NCBI GenBank assembly: GCA_044337875.1
Contig: JBIIMS010000005.1
Coordinates: forward strand, 142,350 to 206,349
Direction: 5' to 3'
DNA: 64,000 bases
Source of the DNA: Gemmataceae bacterium
Lineage (GTDB): Bacteria; Planctomycetota; Planctomycetia; Gemmatales; Gemmataceae
Shown here: positions 17,618 through 45,629 of the stretch, piece by piece
Layout of the letters: each line of letters opens with the position of its first letter
Numbering within the stretch: position 1 is the stretch's first letter
Translations under genes and position numbers: made by a program
Notes under the pieces: model-generated
Databases searched by the model: none
What the model saw: only the letters and a program-made list of their open reading frames with translations
Told to the model about the DNA's origin: nothing

Positions 17618-18973
17618 ATGACTCAAACAAAATTCATCTGGCTTGCAACTCTTCTGCTCATCGCTGTTACCCCTGAAATTTATGCGCAAAAAGCGCCCTA
17701 CGATGTTTTCCCACCCGCAGAAGCACCCTACTACCGTGTACGCTACGAAGCTTCCACCAATCCGGGCGAGCTTACCTTCCCCGTCAACTACACGATTTGG
17801 ATTCCCAAAGATGTGAAGAATCTCCGGGGCGTGATTGTTCATCAACATGGTTGTGGCGAAGGGTCTTGCAAATCTGGCCTTACAGGCGCATATGATCTTC
17901 ATTGGCAGGCACTTGCAAAAAAACATGATTGTGCTCTGCTTGCTCCCTCCTACGAACAACCAGAAAAAGGCGATTGCCAAATGTGGTGCGATCCGCGTAA
18001 TGGTTCAAGCGCAGCGTTTCAAAAGTGCCTCGTCGATCTGGGTGCAAAATCCGGGCATCCCGAATTGTCGAAATTGCCTTGGGCACTTTGGGGCCATAGT
18101 GGTGGTGGCCATTGGGCCGGCGGCATGGTGCTCATGCATCCCGAACGCGTTGCAGCAGCTTGGCTTCGTTCAGGCGTTCCACTTCTCAAAGCAAATGCAG
18201 AACGCTCTACCATCAAGGCACATACCTTACCCGATGCAGCTTTAAAAGTTCCCGTCATGTGTAACCCTGGAACCAAAGAAGGCGTTACTGTTAAAGATTC
18301 TCGTTTCGCAGGAGTATGGCCTGCCAACGAAACCTTCTTCAACGAAGTTCGCTCCAAGGGTGGCCTAATAAGTGTTGCTGTTGATCCACTATCCAGCCAC
18401 GAGTGTGGCAACCAGCGTTACCTCGCAATCGTATGGCTCGATGCTTGCTTAAGCGCCCGCCTACCCAAGATTACTACGAACCCACTTAATGCTATGCCCA
18501 CTGATCAAGTATGGCTTGCCCCTATCACTGGCGGAGAGGCACAACCTATGGCAAAGTTTTCAGGCGAACCTCTAAAAGCTGCATGGTTACCAAACGAAGC
18601 CATTGCAAAGTCTTGGATGCAGTATGTGAAAGATACTTTGGTAAGCGATACCACTGCGCCCTCTGCTCCAACAAATTTACAAGTGAAGGGCAACGAACTG
18701 AAGTGGGAAGCAGAAGCTGATCTTGAAAGTGGACTTGCAAGTTTCATCATCGAGAGGGATGGGAAGTTTCTCGCAAACCTTCCAGAGACTGGGAAGAACC
18801 CCTTTGGCCGACCCATTTTCCAGAACCTGCAATACAGCGACACGCCCTCCCAACCGCTTGTCCCAATGAAATACACCGATACAAAAGCGGAGGCAGGCAA
18901 GAAACACACCTACCGTGTAATCACGGTAAACACAGCTGGCTTAAAATCAAAACCTTCTGCAGATTCTAAATAA
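17618..18973 (+). CDS. Secreted alpha/beta hydrolase (esterase/depolymerase-like) with C-terminal fibronectin type III domain
   Basis: Signal peptide [23 protein letters not shown] and nucleophile elbow WGHSGGGHW. The C-terminus [21 protein letters not shown]...[18 protein letters not shown] is FN3-like. Confidence 0.6.
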
Positions 18974-18990
18974 ACAAATGTTTTAAAGGA

Positions 18991-19185
18991 AGAAGTAGCA
19001 GAAGCATAGCCACGGAAGGAAGAATAAGCAGAAGCATTTGCCACGGATTAACACGGAATTTCACGGAATCAAAACACTTCTTTCAGAGCCGGATGCGTGA
19101 GCGACGGTTTGACTCATCCCTTAGGTGCAAGACCCAAAGGTTCAAATGGAGGAGTTGCAGTGGGGCTTCCCCATCGCAACTCCTC
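18991..19185. repeat. Intergenic repeat family, locus A (modules M1-M2-M3 plus a complete hairpin)
   Basis: M1 at 18991-19077: AGCAGAAGCAT(T)(A/T)GCCACGGA sub-units plus TTAACACGGA. M2 at 19084-19107: CAGAGCCGGATGCGTGAGCGACGG. M3 at 19145-19169: AATGGAGGAGTTGCAGTGGGGCTTC. Positions 19027-19169 align with 40334-40455. Confidence 0.8.
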
Positions 19186-19333
19186 TGTCTTTAAACAAAC
19201 CCACATCAATAAATATGTAATTGGAAGCAAAAGGAAGAATAAGAATGGAACTCCGCATAAGCGAAGTTGACGAAGGCGGCGGCGGGCTAACTGGAACCCG
19301 GGCTAGCGAAGCGAAGGGCCCTTTTCCCGGAGG

Positions 19334-19416
19334 GAAGAGGGTTGGATGTTGGGGGAAGTAAAAGAAAAAATGCTGGTGTAAAAGCAAAAAAGAAGAGGGT
19401 TGGGTGTTGGGGGAAG
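19334..19416. repeat. Intergenic repeat family, module M4 (two copies)
   Basis: GAAGAGGGTTGGATGTTGGGGGAAG at 19334-19358 and GAAGAGGGTTGGGTGTTGGGGGAAG at 19392-19416. A third copy is at 45495-45519. Each copy is followed by an A-rich AAAAGA run. Confidence 0.8.
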
Positions 19417-19457
19417 AAAAAGAGAAAAAGTAAAAGGAGGAAGTGACCGGCCCAGTG

Positions 19458-20552
19458 TTATTTCACTTCGAGGATTTTATCGAACAGTTTGAATGCTGCT
19501 TCTCGCATTTCCGGGTTGAAATCGTGTCCGCCTTCTGGGTGAAGCACCTTCAAATTCTCGGGCTTCTTATAGAGCGAAAAAATCTTGCCTGCAGATGCAG
19601 CAACTCTATCCACACTATCTGATTTAAAATTGCTATCCATGGTAGGCGAGATGATAAGAGTATTTCGGGGTGCAAGTGCACCAATCATTTCGTGAAAATC
19701 AAACGGGATTTGTTCGAGCCTTCCTTTATAGGATGCAAGCTTAGGCATGTATCGCGTTTGGCACCAGCCTTTCTCTAACTCCCAGACCTTGGGGTTACCA
19801 CCCATATAATCGAGATAAGAATCCAGTCCGCAACTAGAGACAATCACTTTGATGCGTTCATCAAAAACAGCGGTGTAAACGGAGTTATGCCCACCAAGAG
19901 ATTGGCCTACTGCGCCAAAGTTATTGTGCGCAAGGTAAGGCAGAGTTTCCAGATAATCAAGACCACGGATATTATCCCAGACTGCTTTTAGCGTACCGCT
20001 TTCCCAACCCAAAGCTTTAATATCAGGCTGATACTTTGCAAGCAGCGGATAACTAGGCGATAAGGTGATATAACCCCGCTGGGTTAATTCCATCGCATAG
20101 CCACGATTGGCAACATTGCCTATGCCTACGACGGTGCCATGGCCTATTTGATTATTGGTGCCATGCAGGCAAAGCACCGCGCTTGCTTTTCTTTTTCCTG
20201 AAAGCACATCCTTAGGGATGCAAAGATAAGCTGTCACACGGGAGTTGGGCTCGCTGGCATAGGAGATTAATTTTCGCACGTAGGTGCCACCATCAAATTC
20301 TTCTTCGACTTTAACCTCTAAAGCGATGCGTTTTTCCTTTCCGGGGAGTTTGCCCATCACGGATTGCATGCCCCGGATAATCTCCGCTTTGCGCTTTTGC
20401 CAATCTTCCGTGGTGGTGACGGGAGTGGGTTTGCCCATGGCATTTCTAAAGAGCAAAAGATTTTCGCGGGGTAATCGCTCTAAAACATCAGGTTTATCTT
20501 GATAGCCATAGCATGAGCAAAGAAGAAGTAATGAAAGGCTGGATGACCACAT
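19458..20552 (-). CDS. Secreted alpha/beta hydrolase (dienelactone hydrolase / acetyl-esterase-like)
   Basis: 364-aa ORF with nucleophile elbow GQSLGGHN and a late HPEGGHDF histidine motif. Hydrophobic N-terminus. Confidence 0.6.
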   Translation of the reverse strand: MWSSSLSLLLLCSCYGYQDKPDVLERLPRENLLLFRNAMGKPTPVTTTEDWQKRKAEIIRGMQSVMGKLPGKEKRIALEVKVEEEFDGGTYVRKLISYASEPNSRVTAYLCIPKDVLSGKRKASAVLCLHGTNNQIGHGTVVGIGNVANRGYAMELTQRGYITLSPSYPLLAKYQPDIKALGWESGTLKAVWDNIRGLDYLETLPYLAHNNFGAVGQSLGGHNSVYTAVFDERIKVIVSSCGLDSYLDYMGGNPKVWELEKGWCQTRYMPKLASYKGRLEQIPFDFHEMIGALAPRNTLIISPTMDSNFKSDSVDRVAASAGKIFSLYKKPENLKVLHPEGGHDFNPEMREAAFKLFDKILEVK

Positions 20553-38965: not shown

Positions 38966-39191
38966 TCAAGGTGATCCAAAGAACAATCAATTCATGATAG
39001 TATTTGAAATTATAACTAAAACTAAAAAGAATATGGAGTAATAAATAATCTTCTTACATATTCTGAGATTTGCACAGAAGAAGCATAGAGACTGAATTAC
39101 GCTTAAAATTTTGGTAAATTTATTTTTGGTTCAGGCACTTTGCCGATAAATAGACCTGACCCCTTTTTCTCTTTAAGCAAGAAAGGAATGA

Positions 39192-40333: not shown

Positions 40334-40455
40334 AGAAGCAAAAGAATAGCCACGGATTAACACGGATTCAAAACACATAATTCAGATCCGTAAGCGTGAG
40401 CGACGGTAATCCCATCCCTTAGGTACAAAAAATGGAGGAGTTGCAGTGGGGCTTC
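40334..40455. repeat. Intergenic repeat family, locus B (M1-M2-M3)
   Basis: AGCCACGGATTAACACGGA, CAGATCCGTAAGCGTGAGCGACGG, CATCCCTTAGGTACAA and AATGGAGGAGTTGCAGTGGGGCTTC appear in the same order as at 19027-19169. Confidence 0.8.
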
Positions 40456-40501
40456 ATCTGCGAACAAGTGGGCCGATTAAACACAATCTCCCGTAGGTTC
40501 A

Positions 40502-41774: not shown

Positions 41775-44132
41775 CTACTTTTTCATTTTCCCCTTGGATG
41801 CATCAGCCTCGGGCTTCGTGAGTTCGCGCATCGGGTTGGTAGGCTTCTCGTCCTTATAAAGCTGAAGCTTCGTCTTCACCGCACGGCGCGGCCAGAAATT
41901 GTTCTCTACTTCAGTATCCATCAACTCCTGCCGAGGATCAAAAGTGATCGCCTTAATCTCCTTAACCGTAAGATGAACCTTTGAGGCTTTCTCTGTATTG
42001 AAGCGCCAAATCTCGGCAGGGATCTGCAGTTCCTCACTAGTCCCATCGGTGTATTCAAATTTTAAGGGGACAGGTGTAATCAGACCGCCTACATTGCTGA
42101 GCTCGATCACATAGATATTATGCTTCGTCTGCAACAGCTTGGGATCAATCTTGGCATCTTCAAGTTCCTTGATCAGTGCCTCGTATTTCTTCTTATCGCT
42201 TGGTAGCACCGTGGCCTCATCGTAACTATCGTAGAAATCCTTCAGCTCAGGAAAGCGATCAACGCGCTTGGGGAGTGCTGCATTTCGCTCCTTGGTCAGC
42301 GTCTTGGGCTGGGCCTCGCGTTCAGCCTTGGCCTTGGGCTTCTCGATCGCAGGATCGCGAGAGTCAAGCTGAAGCCAATGGACTTCATCAACAGCAACAT
42401 CAACATGGTCTACACCGTAAAACCAACTACGCCAGAACCAGTCGAGATCCACGCCGCTGGCATCTTCCATCGTGCGGAAGAAATCAGCCGGGGTAGGGCG
42501 CTTGAACATCCATCGCTTGGCATAAATCTTAAAAGCATGATCGAAAGCCTCGCGGCCCAAGATGTTCTCACGGAGAATATTAAGGGCGACAGTCGGTTGG
42601 CCATAGGAGTTGTGCCCAAGGTCGGCGATGGATTCCGAATTGGTCATCACCGGTACCCGATCTTTATGCTTCATGTAATCGATCATCCCGCGGTTGTTGC
42701 GGTTGGGCTTCCAGTTGGCCTCCCATTCTTCTTGAGCGAGGAATTCCAAGAACGAGTTGAGGCCCTCGTCCATCCATGTCCACTGGCGTTCATCGCTGTT
42801 GACGATCATGGGAAAATAATTGTGGCCGACTTCATGGATGACAACACCTATCAGGGCATACTTCGTGCGTTCAGGGTAGGTGCCATCTTTCTCGGGGCGG
42901 GGGCCGTTGAAGCAGATCATCGGGTATTCCATTCCGCCGATGGGGCCATTCACTGACCAAGCCACCGGATAGGGATAATCAAAGGTGTATCGAGAATAAA
43001 CCTCAAGAGTATGGGCGATGGCGTGGGTCGAATATTTGTCCCAAAGCGGCATACCTTCCTTGGGGTAGAGTGACATCGCCATCACTGGCTTGCCCTTTAC
43101 TTCCATGCCTGCCACGGCCATAGCATCCCATACAAACTTGCGTGAGCTGGCAAAGGCGAAGTCGCGAACATTCTCGGCCTGAAAGACCCAAGTCTTCTTA
43201 CCCTTAGGCTTGCCCTTTTCTGCTGCCTTGGCTTCTTCTGGCGTGACTACGAACACGGGCTTCTTGGTTTCTTTCTGCGCTTTTAGAAGTCGTTCACGCT
43301 GAGTCGCATTGAGTACCTCTTCCTCATTTTTAAGGGAACCCGTTGCAGCCACGATATGATCATCGGGCACGGTCAGCGAGACTTTATAATCACCGAACTC
43401 GAGAGTGAACTCGCCGGTGCCGAGAAACTGCTTGTTGATCCAGCCACCATAATCCGTGTATGCAGCCATTCGCGGGAACCACTGTGCGATAGTGTAAATA
43501 GAGTTGCCATCCTCTTTAAAGAACTCGTATCCCGTTCGCGCCATAATGCGTTTAGCATCGTTGATGGGAAAGTTCCAAGCGATCTTAAAAACAAAGTCGG
43601 CACCAGGCTTAAGCGGCTTAGGAAGATCGAGACGCATCATTGTCTTAACAATCGTATGAGGGATACCGCGGCCTTCTGCATCGGTCAACTTGGTTACCTT
43701 CAGTTCGCCGTCATAAGTTTCGTAGGCTAGAAGGCGATCGAGTGCGGTGTAGCTAAACTTTTTTAGATCGACGCCACGCTTAGCGTTGGGAACCATCCGC
43801 GAATCAGCGTTACGTGATAAATAGTTTTGATCGAGTTGAACCCAGAGGTAGTCAAGTGTATCGGGTGAGGCGTTATGGTAGGTAACGGTAGAATCGGCGG
43901 TAAGGGTGCGCTTATCGTCATCGAGTTCAACGCGGATATCGTAGTCAGCGCGGTTCTGCCAGTAGGCTGCACCGGGGGCGCCAGTGGCTAGGCGCTGTTG
44001 AGAGGGCGCTGGTAGGAGGGATTCCAACTGCTGGAACTTCTGCACGGGGCTACCGAGCTTAGCTTCCTGCGCCATTACTAACAACGTGCCCACCAAACCC
44101 AACAACATGACTAAGCCAAGTATTCTTTTCAT
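41775..44132 (-). CDS. Secreted M1-family zinc aminopeptidase
   Basis: GGMEYPMI (GxMEN-type exopeptidase motif) and HEVGHNYFPMIVNSDERQWTWMDEGLNSF (HExxH-x18-E). Signal peptide MKRILGLVMLLGLVGTLLVMA. Confidence 0.85.
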   Translation of the reverse strand: MKRILGLVMLLGLVGTLLVMAQEAKLGSPVQKFQQLESLLPAPSQQRLATGAPGAAYWQNRADYDIRVELDDDKRTLTADSTVTYHNASPDTLDYLWVQLDQNYLSRNADSRMVPNAKRGVDLKKFSYTALDRLLAYETYDGELKVTKLTDAEGRGIPHTIVKTMMRLDLPKPLKPGADFVFKIAWNFPINDAKRIMARTGYEFFKEDGNSIYTIAQWFPRMAAYTDYGGWINKQFLGTGEFTLEFGDYKVSLTVPDDHIVAATGSLKNEEEVLNATQRERLLKAQKETKKPVFVVTPEEAKAAEKGKPKGKKTWVFQAENVRDFAFASSRKFVWDAMAVAGMEVKGKPVMAMSLYPKEGMPLWDKYSTHAIAHTLEVYSRYTFDYPYPVAWSVNGPIGGMEYPMICFNGPRPEKDGTYPERTKYALIGVVIHEVGHNYFPMIVNSDERQWTWMDEGLNSFLEFLAQEEWEANWKPNRNNRGMIDYMKHKDRVPVMTNSESIADLGHNSYGQPTVALNILRENILGREAFDHAFKIYAKRWMFKRPTPADFFRTMEDASGVDLDWFWRSWFYGVDHVDVAVDEVHWLQLDSRDPAIEKPKAKAEREAQPKTLTKERNAALPKRVDRFPELKDFYDSYDEATVLPSDKKKYEALIKELEDAKIDPKLLQTKHNIYVIELSNVGGLITPVPLKFEYTDGTSEELQIPAEIWRFNTEKASKVHLTVKEIKAITFDPRQELMDTEVENNFWPRRAVKTKLQLYKDEKPTNPMRELTKPEADASKGKMKK

Positions 44133-44220
44133 TTCTCACCTCTAAGCTAAAGCTAAACCGTATTCTCTTAACTTTAGGGTAAGGCGTTCACGGAGTCTAT
44201 TTTAATCCACCTCGCCAGCA
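44057..44220 (-). repeat. Duplicated 5' cassette (upstream region, RBS and signal-peptide codons), copy 1
   Basis: Aligns almost base for base with 45103-45267. It includes ATTTCTCACCT.TAAGCTAAAGCTAAAC and TTTTAATCCACCTCGCCAGC on the plus strand, plus the first approximately 25 codons (MKRILGLVM.LGL.G.L..MAQEAKL). Confidence 0.85.
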
Positions 44221-44228
44221 ACAGGAAG

Positions 44229-44252
44229 CAGAGCCGGATGCGCAAGCGACGG
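44229..44252. repeat. Intergenic repeat family, locus C (module M2 only)
   Basis: CAGAGCCGGATGCGCAAGCGACGG compared with 19084-19107 (two substitutions). Confidence 0.7.
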
Positions 44253-44345
44253 TAAAGATGTGAAATAGAAAAAAGGAAGAACCATCGCTAACACTTCAGG
44301 ATTGTAAGAGATCTATTTACGATAGTAGTAAGGTCCACTGTATTA

Positions 44346-45179
44346 TCAAGGAATCGACGCTTTCTCAACAGCAGCCTTCACTTTCGAACGAAGCTCTCTC
44401 AAGCCTGGTTGGATGTCTTTCAGAGCAGGATCATCTTGAAGCTTATCAAGTCGAAAGAGTGTCTCTGTACGTGACCCATCCGGAAGCCGCAAAACGATCT
44501 GAGGGAAGGTCTCTTGCATATAACCAACCAACCGGACAAGTTCGCTCGCACGGTAACTCTCCCTCTCAGTGAGAGTTTTGATGGCCCCAGCAACAACACT
44601 CGCAAGCCCGCGCTTCATTTGATCCAGCCCTTGCATGCGAACCTGATATTTTGGATCGTCTTTTTTGATAGTTGGCAAAAACTCATCAACGATTTCTAGA
44701 AGTACAAGGGCCGATCTTAGCTGAGCCCCCAAAAGCTCTACCATTTCACTGTCGCTCACATCATTTTTCAGAAACCCTGCTAAGTAGAGTTTAAAAACCT
44801 GGTTGCTAGACTGGAAATAATTTATTAATAGTGGAAAGCGGGCATTTAATGGGAATGTGCGATCCTTAAAAAAATCTAGGTTCTGTGCCGAAGTTAAACG
44901 ATCAAAGGCCTTTCCTGATCGTTCACTCTTGTATCGAGGGAGCTGCCTGTACCCTTTTTGTGAAACTAGGGTAAGAACTTTCTCTGCTTTGACCATGTCA
45001 TCACCAGACCAAAGTCTGTCGTAGGCAGGAAGACCGAGGCGGATATACTCCTCTAATGTTAAAGACTCATCATTTGAGGATTTAGGATCTGGAGCTGAGG
45101 CAAGCTTAGCTTCCTGTGCCATCCCAATCAACGCACCCGCCAAACCCAACACCATCACTAAACCAAGTATTCTTTTCAT
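44346..45179 (-). CDS. Secreted protein, unknown function (shares its signal peptide and 5' region with the M1 peptidase gene)
   Basis: 277-aa ORF with signal peptide MKRILGLVMVLGLAGALIGMA. Helical composition, with no motif recognised. Confidence 0.45.
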   Translation of the reverse strand: MKRILGLVMVLGLAGALIGMAQEAKLASAPDPKSSNDESLTLEEYIRLGLPAYDRLWSGDDMVKAEKVLTLVSQKGYRQLPRYKSERSGKAFDRLTSAQNLDFFKDRTFPLNARFPLLINYFQSSNQVFKLYLAGFLKNDVSDSEMVELLGAQLRSALVLLEIVDEFLPTIKKDDPKYQVRMQGLDQMKRGLASVVAGAIKTLTERESYRASELVRLVGYMQETFPQIVLRLPDGSRTETLFRLDKLQDDPALKDIQPGLRELRSKVKAAVEKASIP

Positions 45180-45267
45180 TTCTCACCTTAAAGCTAAAGC
45201 TAAACTGTAGTGTCTTAACTTTAGTACAAGGCATTCTTGGAGTCAATTTTAATCCACCTCGCCAGCT
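45103..45267 (-). repeat. Duplicated 5' cassette, copy 2
   Basis: See 44057-44220. Confidence 0.85.
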
Positions 45268-45290
45268 CCAGCCACGCAGTTCCGGATGGG

Positions 45291-45367
45291 CAAGAAAGCA
45301 GAAGACTAGCCACGGATTAACACGGAAGGAAGAATAAGCAGAAGCATTAGCCACGGAATCAAAACAC
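45291..45367. repeat. Intergenic repeat family, locus D (module M1, two sub-units)
   Basis: AGCAGAAGACTAGCCACGGATTAACACGGAAGGAAGAATAAGCAGAAGCATTAGCCACGGAATCAAAACAC is collinear with 18997-19077. Confidence 0.8.
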
Positions 45368-45494
45368 ATCTTGATTTGGGTTGGTGAATGGCTTCAAAGC
45401 CCATGGACTGTGTTCCATGGGTCGCTTGTTTTTGAATAATGCAAGTGTAAAAGGCAAACCCACCCAGCGCAGTGAGTGGGCTTGAAGGCATTGG

Positions 45495-45519
45495 GAAGAG
45501 GGTTGGGAGTTGGGGGAAG
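45495..45519. repeat. Intergenic repeat family, locus D (module M4)
   Basis: GAAGAGGGTTGGGAGTTGGGGGAAG followed by AAAAAGAAAAAG. Compare 19334-19358 and 19392-19416. Confidence 0.8.
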
Positions 45520-45629
45520 AAAAAGAAAAAGATGAAGGGCCAGTACCAGCGGATTGACATCCGCCGCTCAATGAGACAAAAGTTGCAACGCAGTAGGATT
45601 GGAAGATGTGTTTGCGGAAATTACTGCAA

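Follow-up and report, generated by a model that had tools for sequence, protein, structure and literature searches.

Bacterial interspersed mosaic elements (BIMEs) of Escherichia coli and its relatives are extragenic mosaics of several short motif types that lie at gene 3' ends and between convergent genes, make up about 0.5–1% of the genome, vary in content between strains and are accompanied by a Y1 HUH gene in single copy, with copies of its own repeat on either side. The same holds for the element analysed here, which occupies the gap between two convergent open reading frames (ORFs) at positions 18974-19457 (484 bp) of a 64,000-nucleotide stretch of DNA (the window; G000:C20:142350-206349) from a Gemmataceae bacterium, an uncultured freshwater planctomycete whose genome assembly (G000) comprises 4.73 Mb in 31 contigs. 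It differs from BIMEs in that the orientation of its repeats does not alternate, that a GTAG foot is absent, that three of its modules (M1, M3 and M4) are not repetitive extragenic palindromes (REPs) of the Y1 enzyme and that one strand is strongly purine-rich. In its fast-changing modular character it also resembles the Neisseria intergenic mosaic elements (NIMEs), in which RS units are bracketed by dRS3, and BOX of Streptococcus pneumoniae, which is built as boxA-boxB(n)-boxC and whose ends A and C are partly complementary, as in a miniature inverted-repeat transposable element (MITE). With NIMEs it has in common the fast-changing intergenic arrays of short modules, but no common repeat brackets each unit here; with BOX it shares the colinear modular build, the fixed order and the variable number of internal units. 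To our knowledge, BOX has no associated enzyme gene and no sequence relation to the planctomycete modules.

Class 3 TnpA-Y1 proteins, as defined by Quentin et al. (2018), are about 170-178 aa long, carry the motifs NHVH, W[TA] and Y----Q and are found mainly in Planctomycetes; on both sides of their genes lie repeats of weak structure that carry a CnGA foot and also occur dispersed in many copies (PMC6006769). In the NTS/Ssn system, too, a dispersed repeat frames the gene of a small nuclease that recognises it (PMC11893778), although the enzyme there is of the GIY-YIG type and the enzymes here are of the Y1 HUH and PD-(D/E)XK types. The element resembles most closely the enterobacterial REP/BIME 'junk mosaics' and the class 3 REPtron repeats, and does not represent a new kind of system. 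Its identity as a member of a dispersed mosaic repeat family is secure. The gap was interpreted, as the probable reading, as one copy of a genus-specific mosaic extragenic repeat family that consists in part of putative recognition repeats of two nuclease families, spreads in blocks and persists at gene 3' ends.

Modules of the element and their copies in the genome

Modules were located on the plus strand of the window locus by HMM or repeat scans, with nhmmer for M1, M2 and MID. M1 is present as two units, AGCAGAAGCA..GCCACGGA, at 18997-19018 and 19027-19067, in which CACGGA starts at 19011, 19041, 19052 and 19062, with a phase of 10 bp. M2 (CTTTCAGAGCCGGATGCGTGAGCGACGGT, 19080..19108, with a CAGA foot) is followed by the 75-nt module M3 (19123..19197, hairpin arms 19146-19165 and 19169-19188), by the hairpin module MID (19241..19278) and by M4 (19297..19364), which is composed of CCCGGGCTAGCGAAGCGAAG, a hairpin (19317-19328 and 19332-19343), the tail GGGTTGG.TGTTGGGGGAAG and an A/G-rich run; a second G-rich tail of M4 at 19392..19422 belongs to a local 58-bp duplication. 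The linkers between modules are A/G-rich (e.g. GTAAAAG, GAAAG), and the plus strand is 61-65% purine (64.7% in the 484-bp gap), with several GGAGG motifs. An earlier interpretation made from the window alone (the sequence-only reading) had described about 480 non-coding bp built from four modules; the measured length agrees with this, but the modules are more numerous, since MID at 19241-19278 and T1, T2 and R3 within 45396-45571 were added, and T1, T2, R3, R4 and R5 were read from other loci.

For copy numbers, genome G000 was searched with blastn and iterated nhmmer. The family amounted to 76 loci with a total of about 21 kb (97 copies of M1, 42 of M2, 39 of M3, 31 of MID and 39 of M4), and module copies were placed almost wholly outside long ORFs; five of the 76 loci adjoin a contig end. 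All modules were on one strand in each of the 41 loci with modules of at least two ranks, and the order [M1/M2]n-M3-M4 was kept in 39 of them, both exceptions being due to an extra M1; MID was found directly before M3 and/or before M4. Composite length was highly variable (180-900 bp). The proposal of a dispersed, non-coding modular family with conserved order, made on four loci of the window, is thus borne out by further copies throughout the genome; the claim that the gap is the most complete copy applies within the window only, as G000:C17:140635-141454 and C13:350525-351259 are longer. Each of the patterns made for M1 (core), M2 and M4 (tail) matched the window three times, versus 0.00 in 100 dinucleotide-preserving shuffles. 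When the non-ORF DNA was compared all against all, 28-35 kb of it (6-8%), spread over about 100-116 gaps, recurred at 3-5 or more further sites. An origin from a decayed gene, named beforehand as what would speak against such a family, was rejected: tblastn of the GxxExxY and RAYT-like proteins introduced below against the four window loci gave no match at E<=10, and spurious ORFs in the element had no Pfam match.

Of 11 genomes of the same genus, 10 contained the M3-M4 part; all 19 genomes of other genera of the family and order lacked it. An exact-match scan for the M3 stem, with one genome per species, returned 69 loci, all of them in metagenome-assembled genomes (MAGs) of Planctomycetota from freshwater lakes. 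Same-genus MAG records are titled 'Candidatus Kuenenia stuttgartiensis MiH-14oct19-257' and 'Gemmataceae MiH-22jul19-24', which are probably taxonomic mislabels. In lake metagenomes the window locus was covered up to 96% of sampled words, and module words in DNA runs reached 60-100x the depth of the flanks. Contigs of the DNA runs break at every module; a single 63-bp 'skip' in these runs, whose sides are short, is possibly an artefact of assembly.

M3 and M4 are orphan structured modules, and MID, T1 and T2 are terminator-like hairpins, all set in purine-rich linker. The M3 hairpin has 19 pairs with fixed G.T wobbles and one A.C mismatch (-36.6 kcal/mol, z -5.4), and 116 copies in the genus are conserved to 93% per column. 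The hairpin had been put forward for a covariation check: 97.6% of the cells of the M3 stem were paired, and compensatory change was restricted to two of the 19 pairs (one GC/UA/CG, unpaired in 11 of 48 sequences, and one AU/GC). M3 covariation is therefore mostly conservation and does not separate a DNA structure from an RNA structure. M4 consists of the hairpin GGCCCTTTTCCC-GGA-GGGAAGAGGGTT and then GGGAGTTGGGGG, with folds of -27 kcal/mol on the plus strand versus -17 kcal/mol on the minus strand; its consensus is a canonical G-quadruplex (G4) motif, and of the 98 motifs of this type in the genome 31 come from M4, the third G-tract being broken in the window copy at 19297..19364. In both M3 and M4, G.T wobbles give the plus strand the more stable fold. 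For MID the more stable fold is that of the minus strand, on which a scan gave a terminator-like stem (19268->19249) followed by a T-rich tail. A GC-rich stem plus U-tract, as in an intrinsic terminator, was seen on the minus strand in MID and, by reading, on the plus strand in T1 (hairpin and T-run) and on the minus strand in T2 (hairpin with the T-run on that strand), but on neither strand in M3, which has no U-tract. Around 23 Y1_Tnp loci, flanks gave no match to any module hidden Markov model (HMM) except M2, R3 and R4; none of the 69 M3 loci had a Y1 gene alongside, and no inverted pair of M3 or M4 around a gene was found among the G000 loci.

Repeats linked with two nuclease families

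M2 is a REP-like repeat of a class 3 Y1 HUH enzyme related to REP-associated tyrosine transposases (RAYTs) and IS200, and M1 is the 10-bp-phased arm unit of cassettes that encode a GxxExxY PD-(D/E)XK nuclease. Both links are well supported, because the flanking repeats were found in independent genomes. For M2, a 173-aa ORF (G000:C25:28146-28667) had M2 copies on both sides, among them a perfect inverted doublet; the 93%-identical orthologue in the genome of a sister species (G007) was surrounded by five tandem M2 and inverted copies, and a 59%-identical homologue in another genus (G012) by inverted doublets of the M2 core. The C25 protein matched PF01797 with 23.1 bits (cut-off 23) and gave sub-threshold NCBIfam matches to IS200 and REP_Tyr_transpos. 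It has the HUH and Tyr motifs NH[AV]H, WT and YVxxxQ, with HUH and Y invariant in eight homologues. A PDB sequence search with this protein returned no match; with its AlphaFold model (pLDDT 81.6), the top 30 fold matches were IS608, ISDra2, IS200 TnpA and the E. coli RAYT 4er8. The protein agrees with the class 3 'REPtron-like' proteins in motifs, length and CnGA-footed flanking repeats (here CAGA). Quentin et al. give the repeats around the gene and copy counts, whereas M2 here stands singly among the unrelated modules of a larger, ordered mosaic.

Of 41 sampled genera of the family, 23 contain the 22-nt core of M2, GAGCCGGADGCGTNAGCGACGG (control pattern: 0); a single genome has as many as 271 copies, and in other genera (genomes G012-G063) most are inverted doublets about 15 nt apart. 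M2 has no GTAG, pairs weakly with itself and carries CAGA at its 5' end, so that it lacks the GT[AG]G-footed palindrome of REP/RAYT systems and shares with them the Y1 HUH gene and its flanking by the repeat. It also departs from REPINs, which are inverted doublets: only two inverted M2 pairs are present among the 42 copies in G000, in contrast to the other genera. The sequence-only reading had spoken of a REP/MITE-like element and had noted that no transposase was visible; REP-like applies to M2, which flanks the class 3 gene, and the window is indeed free of a transposase gene, although the partner genes are located elsewhere in the genome. Paralogues of the C25 protein at 30-40% identity were flanked by R3 (G002 and G009) and, by reading of the flanks, by R2; R3 in locus D of the window (described below) is accordingly a REP-like repeat of a second RAYT-like paralogue. 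A canonical Y1_Tnp gene at C5 was flanked by R4. The Rfam family RF01687 ('Acido-Lenti-1 sRNA') scored above its gathering threshold in long mosaics at G000:C17:140400-141800 (L138:515-559, minus) and in L113 (G008:C10) at 830, 1092, 1314 and 1903, where, in a genome of the same genus, the canonical Y1_Tnp/RAYT gene has four matches around it; what RF01687 describes may be a RAYT's REP instead of a small RNA.

For M1, a TIGR04256 (GxxExxY) gene at C20:276457-276828 lay between three M1(+) and three M1(-) units, and a remnant of such a gene at C20:7171-7344 between M1(+) and M1(-); the regions of the intact cassette with its inverted arrays and of the remnant are G000:C20:276050-277250 and C20:7140-7370, respectively. 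Orthologues and remnants of the C20 gene had the same inverted arrangement. Related CAC(A/G)GA arms were present at a second GxxExxY gene (C1) and at those of two other genera, and the GxxExxY genes examined in other genera had arms that were spelled differently and similar in design. What M1 has in common with these cassettes is the short units at 9-10-bp phase, which are inverted to either side of the gene, and the dispersal of gene-less copies; it is unlike them in that most M1 arrays here are single arms fused to other modules and not fold-back hairpins. No publication on GxxExxY cassettes with phased inverted arms was found in the literature.

The repetition of CACGGA in M1 had also been taken as a possible array of regulator-binding sites, here formulated as control of adjacent promoters. 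The phase of one helical turn, the variable number of units and the position of M1 toward a gene start in about half of the loci would suit such an array, but in the other half M1 points toward a gene 3' end, the arrays recur in inverted form to either side of GxxExxY genes and of gene remnants, and the nuclease genes of other genera have arms of similar design in a different spelling. The 10-bp-phased units are more likely the arm repeat of nuclease cassettes, and a regulator array was considered highly improbable.

Gene-end position, exchange between loci and alternative readings

Of 35 loci, 29 had the M4 end pointed toward the 3' end of a gene (p=6e-5), and its spacing from stop codons was consistent at about 100 bp; the M1 end faced gene starts and gene 3' ends about equally (~50/50). 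In 37 of 48 loci the element was opposite to the local gene strand (p=1e-4). Two other sources of this bias were rejected: a link of orientation to replication (the sign of GC skew agreed in 25/48) and a general pyrimidine bias downstream of genes (purine fraction 0.46-0.49, no skew). With the M4 end toward the gene 3' end, the gene transcript would carry the C-rich, almost G-free strand, and the C-minus-G excess of the antisense strand was 20-37 per 78 nt, mostly within the top 0.1% of genome windows. The antisense transcript would carry this C-rich, G-poor tract and then the hairpins; the tract could stop or insulate transcription (Rho-type termination with hairpin pausing) and protect the 3' end, and we infer that elements persist at gene 3' ends because of this combination. 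A role in termination or insulation is plausible on position, orientation and composition. For REPs of E. coli, roles in termination and mRNA stabilisation have been proposed (PMC3733652; bioRxiv 10.64898/2026.03.23.713779). The genome contains three rho-like genes (G000:C13:244825-246072, C13:28301-29545 and C25:126852-127946), two above the TIGR00767 cut-off and one just below it.

Metatranscriptome contigs ran from both flanking genes into the element: one contig covers 18889-19068, from the left gene into M1, and others extend from the right gene past its stop codon into M4. Module words had 0.2-4x the depth of the flanks in RNA runs versus 60-100x in DNA runs, so the RNA per copy is far below that of the neighbouring gene. 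This bears on the suggestion of a family of small RNAs, whose genes would be read from the plus strand, toward the neighbouring gene. The stable M3 and M4 hairpins, favoured on the plus strand, and the occurrence of modules in metatranscriptome contigs are what such genes would show; beside the low depth stand the Rfam searches of the window (with gathering thresholds) and of the locus (in E-value mode), which yielded only chance microRNA matches, a sigma-70 promoter scan with 0 sites, the lack of a plus-strand terminator in the scans and a module content too variable for a defined transcript. No discrete abundant small RNA was found, in a transcript test that is weak since the RNA data are unstranded. 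Small RNA genes are on these grounds very unlikely, and the suggestion is not supported.

The gap between the same gene pair measured 484, 573, 1335, 846, 178 and 261 bp in six genomes; in these orthologous gaps the gene-proximal ends were kept and the module sets differed. At another site, with flanks of 96% identity, M1-M3-MID-M4 in one genome corresponded to an M1 array-T1-T2-M4 tail in the other, with only M1 and the M4 tail common to both. Whole composites of 500-900 bp recur at more than one locus with 81-92% identity: C13 and C17 are alignable over 667 bp at 86%, an alignment inside C25 extends over 534 bp at 81%, and a core of 329 bp reaches 92%. Swapped interiors together with common blocks indicate that blocks were copied between loci, and not recently. 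Composites may spread and be reshuffled as blocks by recombination or gene conversion, with M1 and the M4 tail as anchors, and breaks or single-strand transposition by the two enzymes may assist the spread. Neither a target duplication nor a precise empty site was found at polymorphic sites.

Several observations count against the reading of the gap as a nuclease-repeat mosaic that spreads in blocks and persists at 3' ends. The fold of M3 and M4 favours the plus strand, which the neighbouring gene leaves untranscribed; M3 has no U-tract on either strand, and no partner gene for M3 or M4 was found. Within the mosaics M2 stands as a singleton on one strand, with the two inverted pairs given above. 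The C-rich tract is compositional, in that 494 genome regions pass the threshold and 41 of these are at module loci. The last spread must be old, because copies differ by 8-25%, and no movement was observed in the compared genomes, which are MAGs with crude ORFs of at least 120 aa as gene calls. The RNA data are unstranded Logan contigs that are broken at repeats, and transcript ends are not readable from them.

Among the alternatives, a neutral mosaic of selfish or junk DNA that does nothing for the host is possible, if doubtful. The orientation bias would then be due only to counter-selection against sense copies, whose purine-rich strand (GGAGG/AAGGAG Shine-Dalgarno-like runs, G4) would be harmful in mRNA, so that antisense copies survive. 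The purine content and GGAGG motifs of the plus strand fit this, as do the unconserved module content at orthologous sites, the one same-genus genome without M3-M4 and the absence of a downstream purine skew at genes without the element; against it, M3 and M4 have a mean column identity of 93% over about 100 copies across species, which is unexpected for decaying DNA that is 8-25% diverged elsewhere, and the M4 end keeps its distance of ~100 bp from stop codons. A much stronger functional reading, in which the element is an orientation-locked gene-end device (a Rho-type or bidirectional terminator-insulator, with a G-free, C-rich tract ahead of hairpins, made from the recognition repeats of two unrelated small nucleases), the enzymes drive cassette exchange among ~100 loci and M3/M4 form a new single-strand element with a partner protein, was judged unlikely; if true, gene 3' ends across the genus would have been rewired by module swapping.

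Transposition as a single unit would offer a different account. A non-autonomous IS200/IS605-type element, like the palindrome-associated transposable elements (PATEs), would be moved in trans as single-stranded DNA by the class 3 Y1 transposase, with M2 as the left-end structure, the M3/M4 hairpins as right-end structures and one active strand. Consistent with it are modules on one strand without terminal inverted repeats or target duplications, the better fold of M3/M4 on the strand bearing the CAGA-footed M2, whole composites common to several loci and, by reading, a CAGA at the base of M3 on the opposite strand. Only 12 of 39 M3 copies have M2 in the same locus, however, the element has no sharp ends (on the left the M1 arrays are variable, on the right more modules lie beyond M4), orientation relative to GC skew is 25/48 and no precise empty site was found; this account is quite unlikely. 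Least credible, and barely so, is a classical MITE derived from an insertion sequence with a DDE transposase: the element is short, non-coding, dispersed and present at contig ends, but it is 180-900 bp long, contains no inverted pair within a locus, has ragged ends formed by different modules, lacks terminal inverted repeats, as the sequence-only reading had noted, and shows no target duplication at polymorphic sites. The MITE half of the REP/MITE-like proposal is not supported.

Flanking genes, other loci of the window and meaning for the family

The gap is flanked on the left by a plus-strand gene (17618..18973) without a Pfam match, whose 3' end points toward M1, and on the right by a minus-strand gene (19458..20552) with a glucuronyl-esterase-like / alpha-beta-hydrolase match, whose 3' end points toward M4. 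The right gene being on the minus strand, its 3' untranslated region would carry the C/T-rich strand of the element. Two convergent hydrolase genes had been named at this place; convergence was confirmed by the ORF calls, and the hydrolase assignment applies to the right gene only.

The recurrence of M1-M4 at the other loci named for the window was recovered by the repeat finder in each case, and repeat and HMM scans placed all three loci on the plus strand. Locus B (40337..40458) contains M1 (40337-40368), M2 (40381-40408) and only the 5' arm of M3 (40430-40458), between two minus-strand genes (Kelch-repeat and DUF1559); locus C is a lone M2 (44229..44254). Locus D (45297..45571) has two M1 units (45297-45327 and 45337-45359), T1 (hairpin and T-run, 45396-45434), T2 (hairpin, 45458-45491), an M4 tail (45493-45525) and R3 (45543-45571). 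A further dispersed module, GGTTCAGGC...GACCTGACC followed by a T-run, was observed at 39123-39174 and in up to five other gaps. Positions 44056-44224 and 45103-45271 form a direct repeat of 169 bp with 85% identity; an M1-peptidase gene (41775..44132) and an ORF (44346..45179), both on the minus strand, have a common 5' leader and signal-peptide start.

The poorly known class 3 Y1 HUH proteins are now tied to a defined 22-nt repeat, and with the M1 arrays a further, independent example of phased repeat arms around GxxExxY genes is available. As the repeats break MAG assemblies, they could also act as strain markers. From the strong antisense orientation and the G-free tract follows a simple prediction on transcription termination that can be tested. 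For an uncultured, abundant lake planctomycete, the family provides a worked example of bacterial intergenic DNA built from nuclease-associated repeats.

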